Positions 24,837 through 32,188 of a stretch of DNA of 36,398 bases are shown one piece after another. Position 1 is the first letter of the stretch; each line of letters opens with the position of its first letter. Source of the stretch: a virus; UHGV virus genome UHGV-1395479. One strand, given 5' to 3'. Under the pieces are notes generated by a model, which saw only the letters and a list, made by a program, of their open reading frames with translations, searched no databases and had not been told where the DNA came from. The translations under genes and the position numbers were made by a program.

Positions 24837-25217
24837 CTATTGGTCCATTTCCAAACAAAGATCAAGCATTGAGAGACAGCCTTCAATAAACCCCTCAGCC
24901 ATCTGTATCTCAATGCGTATTAGTTTCTCATCCTTTTTACGAGCTTTGGCGAGCTTTCTTTTAGAGATACCGTATAGGTAATGGGCAACAAGAAGCGAAT
25001 GTTCGTCTGGCCTTTTTTGCTTTAGACGAGCAAGACAACCTTCAATAATTAATGCATCACTATCTGAACAAGCCTGACGTGTTTTGCTTGTATAGGGAAG
25101 AAGTCCCTTAAACCCAGCAGCTATAGGCGAATAGTCTACTCCTGAACTGTCACTCGCCGCCCATGCACCCCAACGTTCAAGAACCATTTGAATATCACGC
25201 ATCAACTTTCTCCACAA
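24837..25217 (-). CDS. Q: Late-gene antiterminator Q (small QuuD/phage 82-type family)
   Basis: 126 aa; MRDIQMVLERWGAWAA... resembles my recollection of DLP12 QuuD; last gene of early-right operon, upstream of lysis cassette. Confidence 0.75.
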   Translation of the reverse strand: MWRKLMRDIQMVLERWGAWAASDSSGVDYSPIAAGFKGLLPYTSKTRQACSDSDALIIEGCLARLKQKRPDEHSLLVAHYLYGISKRKLAKARKKDEKLIRIEIQMAEGFIEGCLSMLDLCLEMDQ

Positions 25218-27746: not shown

Positions 27747-28240
27747 TACGCCCCCACGTAATTCCCTGACAGATACCACTCTTCACCCGATGCAGCGCGC
27801 TTGCTGCTTTTCTGTAAGCACTGCTCACGACGCGCCAGAAAATTGTTTCGTTCTGGCTGGGAGTGGCTTTCACGGAATGCCGCCATCCACACGGTTGCAG
27901 CACGACGGTATAAGCCCCTTGACTCCAGTTCTTCAGCCTGGCGGGTCAGGCACAAAATCACCCGGGGCTCGTTAGTGCCGACATAGAAATTGCGCACAGG
28001 TCTGGTTTCACGAACTGGTTGTGGTTCCGGCTCCTGCGCTCTCTCAGTCAGGCGCGGGAAATGTCTGCGTGTATCTCCTTCACAACGGTGAGCCACACGC
28101 CCACTCTGACGTAACTTGCTTACAGACTGCAGAACGCGCTGCCGTGAGTAACCTGCAAAAGCATCCGCAATGTCTCCGGAAGTACACCCAGGATGGGCTT
28201 CAATGAATTTCTGAACGTCATTTAACAGACTCATGATCAC
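27746..28240 (-). CDS. Putative PerC-family transcriptional regulator-like protein
   Basis: 164 aa; C-terminal ..AEELESRGLYRRAATVWMAA.. resembles the PerC/Pch signature; ATGA overlap with upstream replication gene; family call from memory. Confidence 0.4.
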   Translation of the reverse strand: MIMSLLNDVQKFIEAHPGCTSGDIADAFAGYSRQRVLQSVSKLRQSGRVAHRCEGDTRRHFPRLTERAQEPEPQPVRETRPVRNFYVGTNEPRVILCLTRQAEELESRGLYRRAATVWMAAFRESHSQPERNNFLARREQCLQKSSKRAASGEEWYLSGNYVGA

Positions 28241-29178
28241 CCCCTGAATCCTGCCGGGATCTGGCTGTAGTCCACGTTGTCGTAACTGGATTTGAAGTAC
28301 GGGTCTTCGCGTTTTTCGGTGTACGTGCTGACGGACGGCGATAAGCGCAGGGAAAGCTCATCCCATTTTTCCCGCAGCTTCGACGGGCTGAGCACGTTAC
28401 GGCACCAGAACGGATCGCGACTGACGCGGCTGTACATCTCGCAGATTTGTTTATGATTACGACCATCCTGCACACACATCAGGCGAATTTCGTTTGCCCA
28501 GGCTGTCCAGTTCGGTTCTTTGGGACGAACCACCTCGCCGTCACATTCGGCGGCATGCTCGTACAGGGCGATGATTTTTTTCCAGAGCCACTGTGCGCAG
28601 GTCAAATCATCCTGCGTTCCCCACTGGCGCTTTTTAGGGCTGAATACAACCGCATCAGGATGACGAGTTAAAAAATCCTGTTCAGCCGTCTTCGTGTCCG
28701 GTTGCGGAGCGTCCGGACGAGAAGGTTTTTTATCTGACGGATCATGTTTTGATTTTACTGACGGATCCCCGCCAGATTCTGACGGGTGAAAACCCGCTTT
28801 TTTGCCAGATTTCGACGCATCAAATTTTGACGGGTCAGATTTTGATGCGTTAGATTTTGACGGGTCAGAATCTGACAGTTGAGAAAATGCCGCTGCCTGA
28901 AGCTTCGCAACGTTAAGCTGATAAACATTCGACGCATTGCGGTTACCCTGGCGACGCGCCTTACGCGTTAACCAGCCTTCTGCTTCCAGCCGTGCGATAG
29001 CCGTTCTGACGGTACTCATCCCCGCGCCAATCTGACGGGCAATGGTTTCAATTGATGGCCAGCACACACCTTCGTCATTACTGAAATCAGCCAGGCGGGC
29101 CATAATTGCCACGCTGGATAATTTCATGCCTGACGCAGCGCAACCATCCCATACATAGCCGGTTAATTTAGTGCTCAT
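28237..29178 (-). CDS. Replication initiation protein (O-like, N-terminal winged-helix, internal iterons)
   Basis: 313 aa; N-terminal HTH (..CWPSIETIARQIGAGMSTVRTAIARLEAEGWLTRK..); central repeated SDPSK linker encoded by tandem DNA repeats; follows cro/cII-like genes. Confidence 0.6.
   Translation of the reverse strand: MSTKLTGYVWDGCAASGMKLSSVAIMARLADFSNDEGVCWPSIETIARQIGAGMSTVRTAIARLEAEGWLTRKARRQGNRNASNVYQLNVAKLQAAAFSQLSDSDPSKSNASKSDPSKFDASKSGKKAGFHPSESGGDPSVKSKHDPSDKKPSRPDAPQPDTKTAEQDFLTRHPDAVVFSPKKRQWGTQDDLTCAQWLWKKIIALYEHAAECDGEVVRPKEPNWTAWANEIRLMCVQDGRNHKQICEMYSRVSRDPFWCRNVLSPSKLREKWDELSLRLSPSVSTYTEKREDPYFKSSYDNVDYSQIPAGFRG
28731..28880. repeat. Iteron-like direct repeat array inside the replication gene (candidate origin of replication)
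   Basis: About 7 copies of a GATTTTGACGGGTC-like unit (e.g. ATTTTGACGGGTCAGA at 28824-28839 and 28854-28869; TGACGGATC at 28735 and 28759; TGACGGGTG at 28780) spaced 15-30 bp, plus inverted GACGCATCAAA / TTTGATGCGT. Confidence 0.6.
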
Positions 29179-29187
29179 GACCGACCT

Positions 29188-29526
29188 CTATTTCCCTGAA
29201 TTTACGACGAAACTGTTCGAGCGGGCTGAAGCACTCATGCTCATAGCCTTCACGGAGGTAGATAACCCGTTGTGTTTCCGGCTCCCAACGAATGACTCTG
29301 ACGGGCACTCCGTAGTGATCTTTGAACCAGCGGTTAACTTGTCGCAAAGGACTGTCTCCTTCTGCCGGTTGAAATCACCCACAGCCCACTCTGCAAAGCT
29401 GTGGGTTACAATTTCCCTGTCACCTGGTACATTCACTGCATAGCAATATTCCACCTTCGCTTTTCCACCCGGTACAGGAAGCGCAATCAGTTGCGAGCGA
29501 CGGTAGTGTGTTGTTAAACTGTTCAT
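29188..29526 (-). CDS. Hypothetical protein (reading frame uncertain)
   Basis: ATGA coupling to upstream gene at 29523-29526, but a second minus-strand frame over 29190-29330 gives a more protein-like translation; see findings. Confidence 0.35.
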
Positions 29527-30080
29527 GCGTTAGTTTCTCCACAACCAGAAGCAATCGACGCCACGACGCCCGGAGCTGCACACTCGCGGGCGTCATTACT
29601 TTCTGAAATGCAAAAAATTTTGTAGACAAGTGCTGCATGCTCCTGCAGCTTCGAAATTGAGAGATACAGCTCGTCGTTAATTGCTGTCTTCTCATGCGGT
29701 TCCACTACACCGTCTTCGATTGCTGAACGAATCTGTTTTGAATAACTGCCGATCTGTTCAATGACTTCCAGCAGACGCTGGTTAATATCGGCGTTGTCCA
29801 CATCCTCGACGTCAGGAAGAGACACAAAGACGCCATTTGCAGACTGCGCCACAGCATCAGCAATGAAGTGAGTGCCACCAGCACGCTGTAAAACCATTGC
29901 CCATCCCAGCGGGAAAATCTGATCGCCATCTGCACGAAGGCGGTTGAATAAAGCGTTTTCTGTTACATCGAGCCAGTCAGCCGCTTCAGCGTAACCACCC
30001 GGCAACGCCGCGATAGTTTTTCTGACAGCTTTCACGTACCACTCAGGCTGTTTTTCCACTTTCCAGTGATGATTACCCAC
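29523..30080 (-). CDS. Hypothetical early protein in cII position (possibly YdaT-like)
   Basis: 185 aa, immediately downstream of and overlapping cro; family assignment tentative. Confidence 0.35.
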
Positions 30081-30333
30081 GGCTTACCTCCTGTTCCTGT
30101 GGTTTAAACCCATTCTGGTTTTGGCTAGATTGAAAACGTGCCGGATAAAGAATCTGCATTTCGCTGATTTCACCCTTAAAAAAATTGGCCAGACGTTCTG
30201 CAAGATCGATAGATGGAATTTGTTCCAGTCTTTCAATACGACTCAGCGTCGCTGGATTGACCTGAACGCCAGCAGCAACATGCTGCAAAGTAAATCCGTG
30301 CGCCTTACGCACATTCCGTAATGGTGATTGCAT
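30073..30333 (-). CDS. cro: Cro-like HTH repressor
   Basis: 86 aa; HTH FTLQHVAAGVQVNPATLSRIERLEQ; GGAGG SD; divergent from cI across an operator region. Confidence 0.8.
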   Translation of the reverse strand: MQSPLRNVRKAHGFTLQHVAAGVQVNPATLSRIERLEQIPSIDLAERLANFFKGEISEMQILYPARFQSSQNQNGFKPQEQEVSRG

Positions 30334-30347
30334 ATTACCTCCACATA

Positions 30348-30410
30348 TTGCGTGATGAGCATATTATTTCACGCAAATATTTTGCGCAAGTTGATTTGCT
30401 TAACGCGCAA
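30348..30410. promoter_or_regulatory. OR-like operator region with palindromic repeats between cro and cI
   Basis: 29-bp palindromes TTGCGTGATGAGCATATTATTTCACGCAA (30348-30376) and TTGCGCAAGTTGATTTGCTTAACGCGCAA (30382-30410). Confidence 0.6.
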
Positions 30411-30430: not shown

Positions 30431-31123
30431 ATGAACATAGGAAACCGAGTCAGACAACTTCGCCAGGCGAAGAACATGAAAATCGCCGATCTCGCTGAAG
30501 CAATAGGAGTGGATGCGGCGAATATCTCACGCTTGGAAACAGGTAAGCAGAAACAATTCACTGAACAAGCCCTGAGTAATATTGCCAGGAGCTTAGGTGT
30601 TGATATTGCTGATCTCTTTACCTCAGACGTCAAAAGTAATACTGTATGTAAAAACAGTATTAGTGAGGATGTTGCGCAGGTGAAGGATGTATTCCGTATT
30701 GAAATGCTGGATGTCAGTGCCAGTGCGGGAAATGGCCTTATCCAGGGCGGTGATGTCATTGATGTGATTCATGCCATTGAATACAGAACTGATAATGCTG
30801 TATCGATGTTTGGCGGACGGCCAGCCAATCACATTAAAGTTATCAACGTTCGTGGGGACAGTATGTGTCCAACCATTGAGCCAGGAGATCTCATCTTCGT
30901 TGATGTCAGTATCAATCAGTTTGATGGAGATGGTATCTATGTATTTGGTTTTGATGATAAAATTTATGTCAAACGACTGCAAATGATACCTGACAAACTA
31001 CTGGTGATTTCTGATAACCAGATTTACCGTGAATGGGGAATTACCAGCGAAAATGAACACCGGTTTATGGTCTTTGGAAAGGTCTTAATCAGCCAGTCAC
31101 AAACCCTTAAGCGACACAATTAA
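30431..31123 (+). CDS. cI: cI-like repressor (N-terminal HTH, C-terminal S24 LexA-like autopeptidase)
   Basis: 230 aa; HTH IADLAEAIGVDAANISRLETG; S24 Ser/Lys dyad motifs VRGDSMCPTIEPGDLIFVD and FGKVL; no SD, start abuts operator (leaderless-type as in lambda pRM). Confidence 0.9.
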   Translation: MNIGNRVRQLRQAKNMKIADLAEAIGVDAANISRLETGKQKQFTEQALSNIARSLGVDIADLFTSDVKSNTVCKNSISEDVAQVKDVFRIEMLDVSASAGNGLIQGGDVIDVIHAIEYRTDNAVSMFGGRPANHIKVINVRGDSMCPTIEPGDLIFVDVSINQFDGDGIYVFGFDDKIYVKRLQMIPDKLLVISDNQIYREWGITSENEHRFMVFGKVLISQSQTLKRHN

Positions 31124-31143
31124 CCCTTACCTCCTCATCAATT

Positions 31144-31168
31144 AGCCACCCAAAGGTGGCTTTTCATT
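31144..31168 (+). terminator. Rho-independent terminator downstream of cI
   Basis: AGCCACC-caaa-GGTGGCT hairpin followed by TTTTCATT. Confidence 0.7.
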
Positions 31169-31178
31169 ACCCTTTAAA

Positions 31179-31217
31179 TTGCATATCTCGCAACAAAAAC
31201 ACTTGCATAATGCGCAA
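31179..31217. promoter_or_regulatory. OL-like operator repeats (TTGC-N7-GCAA 15-mers)
   Basis: TTGCATATCTCGCAA (31179-31193) and TTGCATAATGCGCAA (31203-31217), same architecture as TTGCTTAACGCGCAA in OR (30396-30410). Confidence 0.5.
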
Positions 31218-31642
31218 CTTCATTTTATCTTTCTTTCCAGACAAACAAACAAGGTACTAACAAAATTTGGTTGTAACACGGCGTATGGCACATGCGTCGT
31301 TAGCGGTCTGGGGACGTTAAAGGGGACAATCCACTCCTTGCTCGGGCAAACAAACCAGGTAGCCGGAATGTGCAAGTCAATGATGATGCTGATAAGACGC
31401 CTAACCAGCGTGGCGATTCGGTTTGACGCCTGGGAAGAGACCAGGGTGCAACGATGAGGGCATTTATGGAGCCGCGACAAAGTGTGGTGCCGTAACTGGC
31501 TAAGTGCTCTCAGCGTTGTGGTAATCCGCGAAATGGCGCGGCGGTAAGTATGGCGGGGTTACTATTTCCCCGTTGAGGACACCGGATTGTCAGGTTGACC
31601 ATACGCCTGAGTGACAACCCCACCACAACAGCCACTGCTTTG

Positions 31643-31690
31643 GCGGTACCAGTTTGTACCCTTGCTTCCGGCTGGTACCGCTCTTTTTAC
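31643..31690 (+). terminator. Hairpin plus T-run (candidate early-left terminator or regulatory RNA structure)
   Basis: GCGGTACCAG (31643-31652) / CTGGTACCGC (31672-31681) 10-bp stem, 19-nt loop, followed by TCTTTTTAC. Confidence 0.45.
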
Positions 31691-31825
31691 AAAACAGAGA
31701 AGAGCATCACCGGACGACGGGCTCATAACCCAATCCATCCGGGCGGCAGTCACCGCAGGTGTTCTTCTCTGTTTTGTGGAGAAACCAACCGACCTTGCAG
31801 GGTCGATATGATGAGGAGCAGCAAA

Positions 31826-32188
31826 ATGGCTAGCGAACGCAGTACTGATGTGCAGGCATTTATCGGGGAGCTGGACGGCGGCGTATTTGAAACCAAAATC
31901 GGCGCAGTTCTCAGTGAAGTCGCTTCCGGTGTGATGAACACGAAAACCAAAGGTAAGGTCTCACTCAACCTGGAAATCGAACCATTTGATGAGAACCGTG
32001 TGAAAATCAAACACAAACTCTCATATGTTCGCCCGACTAACCGCGGGAAAATTTCCGAAGAAGACACCACCGAAACGCCGATGTATGTCAATCGCGGTGG
32101 TCGCCTGACTATTCTGCAGGAAGACCAGGGACAATTACTGACTCTTGCCGGTGAACCTGACGGAAAACTCCGCGCAGCAGGTCATTAA
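31826..32188 (+). CDS. Hypothetical protein, YfdP-like (120 aa)
   Basis: Start chosen at ATG 31826 with AGGAG SD 7 nt upstream (MASERSTDVQAFIGELDGG...); the ORF track extends it to 31595 without support; size and neighbours resemble CPS-53 yfdP as recalled. Confidence 0.55.
   Translation: MASERSTDVQAFIGELDGGVFETKIGAVLSEVASGVMNTKTKGKVSLNLEIEPFDENRVKIKHKLSYVRPTNRGKISEEDTTETPMYVNRGGRLTILQEDQGQLLTLAGEPDGKLRAAGH

Follow-up and report, generated by a model that had tools for sequence, protein, structure and literature searches.

A mosaic of conserved RNA modules, probably including a DicF/sRNA-17-type small RNA, in the early-left region of a lambdoid prophage without N

UHGV virus genome UHGV-1395479 (36,398 nucleotides; the whole of this stretch is referred to as the window) is a lambdoid prophage whose rightward operon lies on the − strand and whose cI gene and leftward operon lie on the + strand. 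Between the OL-type operators of its immunity region and the first credible leftward gene, yfdP, there is a gap of about 600 bases (31230-31825), and we found that this gap is a mosaic of four conserved RNA modules, all on the + strand, each of which was also found alone in other enterobacterial phages. We conclude that the interval is probably the untranslated early-left leader of an N-less lambdoid prophage, assembled from mobile RNA modules that include a small RNA (sRNA) of the DicF/sRNA-17 type. The conclusion is based on homology, synteny with dicF, covariation, non-coding character, strand, and RNA ends published for a sister prophage. A sequence-only reading of the window had described the interval as structured, non-coding and devoid of an N-like gene, and had offered RNA-based antitermination, attenuation or an sRNA as its possible function.

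Results

The + strand of the interval folded with a predicted free energy of −229.8 kcal/mol, which corresponds to z = −4.8 relative to shuffled sequences (z = −3.9 for the − strand); its G+C content, 0.54-0.57, is above that of the flanks, and three of its modules, represented by 42-55 non-redundant homologues, showed compensatory base changes. The folding and covariance analysis that the sequence-only reading had recommended thus gave a stable fold and helices that covary among related phages, upholding the description of the interval as structured. Its non-coding character was upheld as well, since many copies have stops in all frames, the frames that remain open differ from copy to copy, and the length variants are not multiples of 3. 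None of the + strand open reading frames (ORFs) of at least 25 amino acids in the interval is Arg-rich or matches an antiterminator PHROG, in agreement with the earlier statement that no N-like ORF is present. Rfam covariance models gave no match in the whole window at gathering thresholds, and only chance-level matches at E ≤ 10 in 31100-31900 and 31600-31700. For tRNA genes, ARAGORN found 0 in the window and the Rfam tRNA model RF00005 gave nothing at E ≤ 10; a tRNA-Arg label beneath one BLAST match proved to belong to a neighbouring real tRNA outside the homologous segment and was discarded.

Two adjacent modules connect the interval with dicF. Module B (31522-31637, + strand), recognized by homology, is the conserved leader preceding dicF in the Qin prophage. 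It is 88.6% identical to K-12 Qin (L011:2752-2874), where the match stops 9 nt before dicF; about 89% (89.4%) identical to the sequence in phage Evi that immediately precedes an Rfam DicF match; and 75% identical to the P1 ban operon leader, where the match overlaps an annotated 'dicF-like region'. Its structure includes hairpins at 31526-31541 and 31554-31572, a helix between 31548-31553 and 31599-31604, and a candidate pseudoknot between 31587-31591 and 31613-31617. Because the module B sequence barely varies, covariation gave this structure modest support (96.2% paired, 4 of 21 pairs compensatory); in a quarter of the copies every one of the six frames contains a stop. Module B is followed by what we call the sRNA slot (31619-31688, + strand), composed of a single-stranded 5' part, CACCACAACAGCCACUGCUU, a terminator hairpin and a T-run. 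The 10-bp-stem hairpin and T-run described earlier were found as stated: the arms, 31643-31652 and 31672-31681, are complementary at 10 of 10 positions and enclose a 19-nt CU-rich loop, TCTTTTT occupies 31682-31688, and the hairpin has a predicted energy of −21.2 kcal/mol (ViennaRNA). A simple terminator scan missed this hairpin because its loop limit was 8 nt.

In a pattern scan of IMG/VR, module B was always followed by a short RNA with a GGCGG...CCGCC hairpin and a U-run, while the seed and loop of that RNA differed by locus; besides canonical DicF and the type seen in the window there were at least seven more types, the P1 'dicF-like' RNA among them. When five slot alleles were scored against the DicF gathering threshold, the one from L230 passed and those from L199, L205, L221 and L232 failed. 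The 3' hairpin in the window slot starts with UUUGGCGG, has the 10-bp stem and TCTTTTT, and contains a core, UUUGGCGGUAyCAGUUU, that aligns with DicF and is shared with it. The window RNA does not have the DicF 5' seed UUUCUGGUGAC (the xylR seed), which is replaced, and the ftsZ-pairing core AUCAGUUUUACUCCG of DicF is ACCAGUUUGUACCCUUG in the window (ACCCUUG where DicF has ACUCCG). In duplex predictions with the ftsZ leader the shuffle fraction was 0.12 for DicF and 0.86 for the window sRNA, so that not even DicF was distinguished from shuffled sequences, and full-length duplexfold gave unrealistically long duplexes; the comparison was uninformative. DicF, whose gene sits within an extended untranslated stretch, is a proven trans-acting sRNA. 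RNase E generates its 5' end, and the 3' end comes from a terminator in the 53-nt form and from RNase III in the 72-nt form; pairing with ftsZ and pykA involves the 3' part of the RNA, and pairing with xylR the 5' part (PMC5069750). The window locus resembles Qin dicF in occupying the same place, the first long untranslated stretch of a repressor-controlled early operon, in having module B directly upstream and a GGCGG...CCGC hairpin with a U-run, and in being followed at once by a long inverted repeat before the next ORF. It differs in that the next gene is yfdP rather than dicB and in that module A, described below, lies upstream, whereas Qin has no module A.

A counterpart of the window RNA has been mapped. 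PMC7719688 describes sRNA-17, a 193-nt RNA defined by 5' and 3' rapid amplification of cDNA ends (RACE) and by northern blotting in an mEp460-like prophage of E. coli K1 RS218. On mEp460, the published primers and probe place sRNA-17 on the + strand at L002:2885-3078, ahead of the yfdP homologue; the northern probe and the primers for 5' RACE are complementary to that strand, so sRNA-17 has the sense proposed here. Its 5' end (CGUUGUGG...; the full-length primer starts CGTTGTGG) falls in the 3' arm of helix X, at the equivalent of window position 31514, and its 3' end is the hairpin and T-run. The last 72 nt of sRNA-17 match window 31619-31688 with one mismatch, so that seed, terminator hairpin and T-run are shared, as are helix X at the 5' end, the strand (that of yfdP) and the place, with the prophage repressor on one side and yfdP on the other. 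In contrast, the 5' ~120 nt of sRNA-17 are not homologous to the window, which has the Qin-type module B there instead. The earlier suggestion that an sRNA might be encoded here was therefore well founded, as the hairpin and T-run are the 3' end of an sRNA of which one allele, sRNA-17 of the mEp460 prophage, has been mapped, and they sit in the Qin DicF slot. We conclude that the window RNA is probably a new allele of the DicF/sRNA-17 family; by the published scheme it would be classed as 'degenerative sRNA-17', and DicF is cited, in the passages searched, only as an unrelated example.

The same paper places a promoter and an ArcA site for sRNA-17 inside what is here a conserved structured RNA, and the complementation fragment starts inside module A, at window 31315. 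Because the proposed promoter and ArcA site would fall in conserved structured RNA, we read the mapped 5' end as a processing product, and the arrangement suggests that it is not a promoter start. The complementation primer corresponds to window 31315-31335 and a further reverse primer to 31386-31406, both inside module A.

The presumed processing site, helix X (31449-31520, + strand), is a 14- to 17-bp helix directly after module A, formed by a 5' arm, CAACGAUGAGGGCAUUUA, and a 3' arm, AGUGCUCUCAGCGUUGUG, with a hypervariable insert between them. Across 17 sequence variants the cognate arms paired with a mean energy of −21.2 kcal/mol, compared with −15.0 for non-cognate arms. Within about 3 nt after helix X there is a tRNA 5' end, a small GC hairpin, or module B; in the Uetakeviruses it is a tRNA-Arg that starts about 3 nt downstream. 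Helix X is thus likely to be a processing site. A nut-like reading of helix X, considered for the boxA-like string UGCUCUCAG in its 3' arm, was rejected because the string varies with compensatory changes while complementarity stays, and no conserved lambda-type boxA with boxB was found.

Module A (31265-31447, + strand) is a conserved pseudoknotted RNA of about 180 nt, defined by a covariance model and by an alignment of 45 non-redundant copies drawn from phage records and from the IMG/VR matches listed for its invariant 19-mer, GGUAGCCGGAAUGUGCAAG (31358-31376). Invariant blocks alternate in these copies with helices that vary in sequence and length. The elements placed in the window are P1 (31279-31299), P2 (31303-31311 with 31355-31363, enclosing a variable hairpin), a variable P3, P4 (31397-31411), P5 (31429-31445, loop GAAGAGA), and a pseudoknot pairing a loop with downstream sequence (31403-31406 with 31420-31423). 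When the proposed four helices and the pseudoknot were scored, 96.1% of the cells were paired, 13 of 28 pairs had changed on both sides, and none of 500 shuffles reached the covariation score, whereas 3' partners slid out of register paired at only 27-49%. The pseudoknot itself covaries, from CACC/GGUG to AACC/GGUU. Two pairs are UG in 43-44 of 44 sequences, and since these would be A-C mismatches on the − strand, the functional strand of module A is the + strand. Stop-free frames, counted over all six, were missing altogether from 22 of the 45 copies. A long-range GGCACAU/AUGUGC pairing returned by RNAalifold was neither supported nor excluded, both of its sides being invariant; the covariation is that of the local P1 hairpin.

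Searched with the module A covariance model, R1, the window yielded a single copy (169.7 bits), and the HK022 loci L239 and L240 and the Qin locus yielded none. Among the matches listed there were 120 distinct contexts of module A, of which about 33 have a tRNA-Arg(UCU) at +164 to +229, about 14 are preceded by a tRNA(CAU) at −170, and about 22 continue into module B; one copy lies about 20 nt ahead of an ORF. A few copies (IMG/VR contigs L094, L038 and L051) have a hairpin and GCTCTTTAA about 110-140 nt after the 19-mer. In L094, TGCTCTTTAACAA, which we take to be the rrn boxA consensus, stands right after module A; it does not occur in this window, and it hints at Nus-factor antitermination in some versions of the cassette. 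A near-identical module A is present in 1376 of 5426 complete E. coli genomes (25%), with 256 places on plasmids, and RefSeq records among the matches listed have no annotation under it. In GTDB, with one genome per species, the 19-mer was confined to Enterobacteriaceae except for two metagenome-assembled genomes labelled Oscillospiraceae and Bacillota (L425 and L437), in which it probably reflects contamination or mis-binning. No Rfam 15 family matched module A at E ≤ 10, and the published paper texts searched for the module A and C2 sequences contained nothing relevant; module A appears to be undescribed. ROOL and GOLLD are large ornate phage RNAs that lie beside tRNA genes. Module A is like them in being complex, highly conserved, present in temperate phages and often directly beside tRNA genes, and unlike them in being much smaller, in having no Rfam match, and in being restricted to Enterobacteriaceae.

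The last module, C2 (31689-31777, + strand), lies in the 5' untranslated region (UTR) of yfdP and was defined from an alignment of 55 copies. It contains the long-range inverted repeat reported by the sequence-only reading, whose arms (31689-31713 and 31753-31777) are 25 nt long, 84% complementary and 39 nt apart. The structure consists of a 20-bp outer stem (31689-31708 with 31758-31777), a 5-bp inner stem (31710-31714 with 31738-31742), an invariant hairpin, GGG-CUCAUAA-CCC (31719-31731; 3 bp and a 7-nt loop), and a variable hairpin (31743-31746 with 31753-31756). For the 55 distinct copies, which came from an IMG/VR scan with the hairpin in the first search pattern, 95.9% of the cells were paired, 10 of 32 pairs were compensatory, and 0 of 500 shuffles reached the covariation score. 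Length variants differ by 1, 2, 4, 8, 19 and 23 nt.

The C2 hairpin, CGGGCTCATAACCC at 31718-31731, is identical over 14 nt (16 of 17) to nt 29-42 of the K-12 initiator tRNA gene metZ; the shared stretch comprises three G-C pairs and the whole anticodon loop of tRNA-fMet, and it is the sole 13- or 14-mer of metZ anywhere in the window. Since the first search pattern had contained the hairpin, C2 was collected again with a pattern of the outer stem only, which yielded 92 distinct copies. The exact 21-mer GACGGGCUCAUAACCCAAUCC was retained in 58 of them, and nearly all kept CAU and the GGG/CCC stem. Changes within the hairpin are non-compensatory, so that the constraint is on sequence, as expected of a recognized mimic. 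Most copies of C2 are preceded by an sRNA terminator and followed by GUGGAGAAAC, a small hairpin, a Shine-Dalgarno sequence and the first ORF of the operon, which belongs to several unrelated families. Pairing of the loop CUCAU with AUGAG at the downstream start was considered and dropped; it occurs in some families and is absent from many. The sRNA slot together with C2 was found in 2495 of 5426 complete E. coli genomes (46%), again with no annotation under the match in the RefSeq records among the matches listed, and C2, which is absent from Rfam 15, appears to be undescribed.

The Qin prophage has a 19-nt inverted repeat that begins 10 nt beyond dicF and stops just short of dicB, and the predicted end of the 72-nt DicF made by RNase III falls in the 5' arm of that repeat; by analogy, the outer stem of C2 is likely to be an RNase III site. 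Mimics of tRNA anticodon arms in mRNAs are known, for example in the E. coli thrS operator. C2 is similar in being an anticodon-arm hairpin in a 5' UTR, and different in that about 95 nt separate the mimic from the yfdP start downstream, so that it is not at the Shine-Dalgarno sequence, and in that it sits on a 20-bp stem. Enteric VapC toxins cut the anticodon stem-loop of tRNA-fMet (PMC7180214). One idea is that C2 acts as a decoy for nucleases that cleave tRNA-fMet, or as a binder of the 30S P site, IF3 or MetRS.

The mosaic character of the interval was evident in BLAST comparisons with phage records, in which sub-segments matched different phages and contexts. Segment 31265-31442 matched the trnI-ban gap of P1, and 31278-31521 matched the Uetakeviruses phiV10, TL-2011b and SPN9TCW just upstream of a tRNA-Arg in a divergently oriented moron; 31515-31637 matched the K-12 Qin prophage, phage Evi and the P1 ban operon leader. 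Farther downstream, 31641-31802 matched SfII, with overlapping parts in SfV and SfIV, 31683-31789 matched Salmonella ST64B, and 31695-31745 matched a site downstream of Q in a Klebsiella phage, where a tRNA-Arg immediately precedes it. Of 5426 complete E. coli genomes, 4768 contained some part of a 701-nt query and about 1000 the entire query; the leader is common to this prophage and phage mEp460. Judged from these comparisons, the cassette appears to consist of RNA-only mobile units common to three kinds of temperate phage: lambdoid, P1-like and Uetakevirus. The moron of TL-2011b (L003, 2380-3115) has the cassette in the same order, from a promoter region through module A and helix X to tRNA-Arg (2742-2818), and continues with a DicF-like hairpin and its U-run (2862-2897), another terminator (2982-2997) and an ORF. 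The P1 ban operon (L004) has a module-B-like leader at 217-340, tRNA genes, and module A at 2501-2685 between trnI and ban, a site with no annotation. On the − strand of mEp460, L002 354-542 matches the Rfam C4 antisense RNA and isrK beside a Rha/antirepressor gene; the window has no such match.

The setting of the interval is that of a lambdoid immunity region. The rightward genes, all on the − strand, include cro (30073-30333), a CII-like gene (29523-30080), an O-like gene (28237-29178), RusA, and a Q-like antiterminator gene (24837-25217); cro shares 8 nt with the CII-like gene, so the earlier remark that cro overlaps the next gene was correct. The cI repressor gene (30431-31123, + strand; CI-like by its match to PHROG 4/6201) ends at a hairpin with a weak T-run (31144-31161, + strand), a terminator-like site in the terminator scan, past which read-through from cI would enter the RNA cassette. 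The two OL-type operators, TTGCATATCTCGCAA and TTGCATAATGCGCAA (31179-31217, strand not assigned), lie where the sequence-only reading had placed OL-like repeats and are exact palindromes; they occupy 31179-31193 and 31203-31217 without mismatch. The perfect palindrome TTGCRN6GCAA occurs just three times in the 36-kb window, the third copy (30396-30410) being in the cI-cro spacer, the OR region. We infer that a PL promoter overlaps the OL operators, with a candidate −35 sequence, TTGCAT, at 31203 and a candidate −10 sequence, TATCTT, at 31226. At the other end of the interval, 31778-31825 (+ strand) contains the conserved GGAGAAACCAAC followed by a small hairpin (31790-31805), ahead of the yfdP Shine-Dalgarno sequence, read as GAGGAG at 31813-31818, and the yfdP start. 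The yfdP gene (31826-32188, + strand), named from RefSeq annotation and matching PHROG 204, is followed by yfdQ and yfdR. The sequence ATGATG at 31808-31813 provides two in-frame ATGs 18 and 15 nt before the annotated yfdP start, overlapping the Shine-Dalgarno region; 31826 is the better-spaced start.

Discussion

We propose the following model for the interval, in which the promoter, the processing enzymes, the action in trans and the targets are what we infer. Transcripts would begin at PL or read through from cI, and module A would be transcribed first. Cleavage of helix X, which is suggested by the 5' end of sRNA-17 and by the tRNA 5' ends found at the same place in other phages, would free an RNA of about 175 nt composed of module B, the seed and the terminator hairpin. 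This RNA most probably acts in trans, using the single-stranded 5' part and the CU-rich terminator loop, and because the ftsZ-pairing core is changed its targets would differ from those of DicF. The intrinsic terminator would set the 3' end of the sRNA and limit transcription into yfdP-yfdQ-yfdR and beyond, while partial read-through would feed yfdP and the genes that follow. Polymerases that read through would make C2, and RNase III would probably cut its 20-bp stem and separate the cassette from the yfdP mRNA, as in the Qin dicF-dicB spacer.

Several points weigh against this reading. A consensus promoter scan called no promoter at OL. The sRNA evidence for the window allele, taken by analogy, is a mapping made in a sister prophage with a different 5' 120 nt, and the label 'DicF family' would rest on synteny and a 20-nt core. 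On 31100-31900 and 31600-31700 the window sRNA gave no match to the DicF model (RF00039, threshold 48 bits) at E ≤ 10, whereas the positive controls, Qin and Evi, scored 76-77 bits, and the UCCG pairing with the ftsZ Shine-Dalgarno sequence is lost. The model also requires that enough polymerase pass a strong terminator after induction. Finally, replacement of sRNA-17 by a chloramphenicol-resistance (CmR) cassette, which according to PMC7719688 raised yfdP about 95-fold and also raised yfdR, fits the loss of a working terminator, but the rise in yfdP could stem from the inserted cassette instead.

The most serious competitor, which we consider possible though clearly the less probable account, is that the interval is mainly a cis-acting attenuator or insulator that in lysogens shields the yfdP...xis/int operon from basal PL transcription and from read-through out of cI, the released RNA being a by-product with no targets in trans. 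The co-orientation of cI and the weakness of its terminator are as this account would have them, as are the rise in yfdP and yfdR just described and the detection of sRNA-17 in an uninduced lysogen, reported in the same paper (PMC7719688). However, the slot alleles vary in seed and loop while keeping the hairpin, which is the pattern of diversifying trans-acting seeds, the canonical allele, DicF, acts in trans, and deletion of sRNA-17 is reported to alter some tens of genes and virulence phenotypes (PMC7719688). Attenuation, as first suggested, holds as to structure: an intrinsic terminator does lie between PL and the first ORF. A competing antiterminator structure was not found.

Processive antitermination by a cis-acting RNA like HK022 put, most plausibly module A, might replace N in carrying polymerase past the sRNA terminator and further terminators downstream, and this was one of the mechanisms that the sequence-only reading had put forward. 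HK022 put RNA is about 70 nt long. Like HK022, the window prophage is a lambdoid phage without N that has structured RNA in its PL leader, and the interval sits where N and nutL lie in lambda, though unlike lambda it has no Arg-rich ORF there. A comparison of SfII, SfIV and SfV reported no N in that phage group (PMC3851460), and the early-left leader of the group shares modules with the window. A strong terminator between PL and the first ORF, the complexity and conservation of module A, its usual location upstream of terminator-ended sRNAs, and the boxA-like sequence after it in loci such as L094 would all suit such a function. Nevertheless, we consider it unlikely. The HK022 immunity/PL/PR region gave only blastn matches of at most 21 nt (E ≥ 0.34) to the interval, and the module A model found nothing there, the put sites themselves not having been located; the rightward operon of the window has no second copy, nor room for one, whereas put RNA has one copy in each early operon (PL and PR), and the interval is 600 nt long. 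Because of this lack of similarity and of a second copy, put-like antitermination is unsupported. The modules also occur in contexts unrelated to PL: module A after trnI in the P1 ban operon and before tRNA-Arg in the Uetakevirus morons, and another part of the cassette downstream of Q in the Klebsiella phage. Moreover, the Qin dicF locus has the same terminator problem with no module A, and in helix X it is the pairing, not the boxA-like string, that is conserved.

Two further accounts are very improbable. Small proteins might be encoded by a 66-amino-acid + strand ORF (31611-31811) or by − strand ORFs at 31220-31480 and 31562-31753, and several phage records annotate hypothetical proteins here, but all six frames contain stops in half of the copies of module A and in one quarter of those of module B, open frames and C2 lengths vary between copies as described above, and the substitutions are compensatory for RNA helices. 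The ORFs at 31562-31753 (− strand) and 31611-31811 (+ strand), which overlie the slot and C2, match the PHROG families 3651 (E = 1e-36) and 33599 (E = 6e-18), both of unknown function; both families probably arose from the miscalling of ORFs over conserved RNA. A phage tRNA array that has decayed and lost its function would account for the tRNA genes that adjoin modules A and C2 in other phages and for the perfect tRNA-fMet anticodon arm, but neither ARAGORN nor the Rfam tRNA model detected a tRNA, and the modules are kept with compensatory changes across Enterobacteriaceae, unlike the products of neutral decay.

Returning to the leader with its DicF/sRNA-17-type sRNA, the reading joins DicF of Qin, the 'dicF-like region' of P1 and sRNA-17 of neonatal-meningitis E. 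coli as one modular cassette with a conserved scaffold and interchangeable sRNA seeds, and the de-repression of yfdP on deletion of sRNA-17 may be a cis effect. The greatest interest of the interval lies in modules A and C2. We suggest tentatively that they are two undescribed functional classes of phage RNA, module A being of riboswitch or ribozyme scale, excised by tRNA or sRNA processing and acting on a host factor, and C2 being an initiator-tRNA mimic that either steers 30S, IF3 or MetRS while the phage begins translation or serves as a nuclease decoy. If that were true, the cassette would be a mobile RNA-only 'moron' with a seed-swapping slot, common to lambdoid, P1-like and Uetakevirus phages. 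Neither of these two conserved structured RNAs is in Rfam 15, and the exact initiator-tRNA anticodon arm of C2 offers a lead on how temperate phages may engage translation initiation or tRNA-targeting defence.

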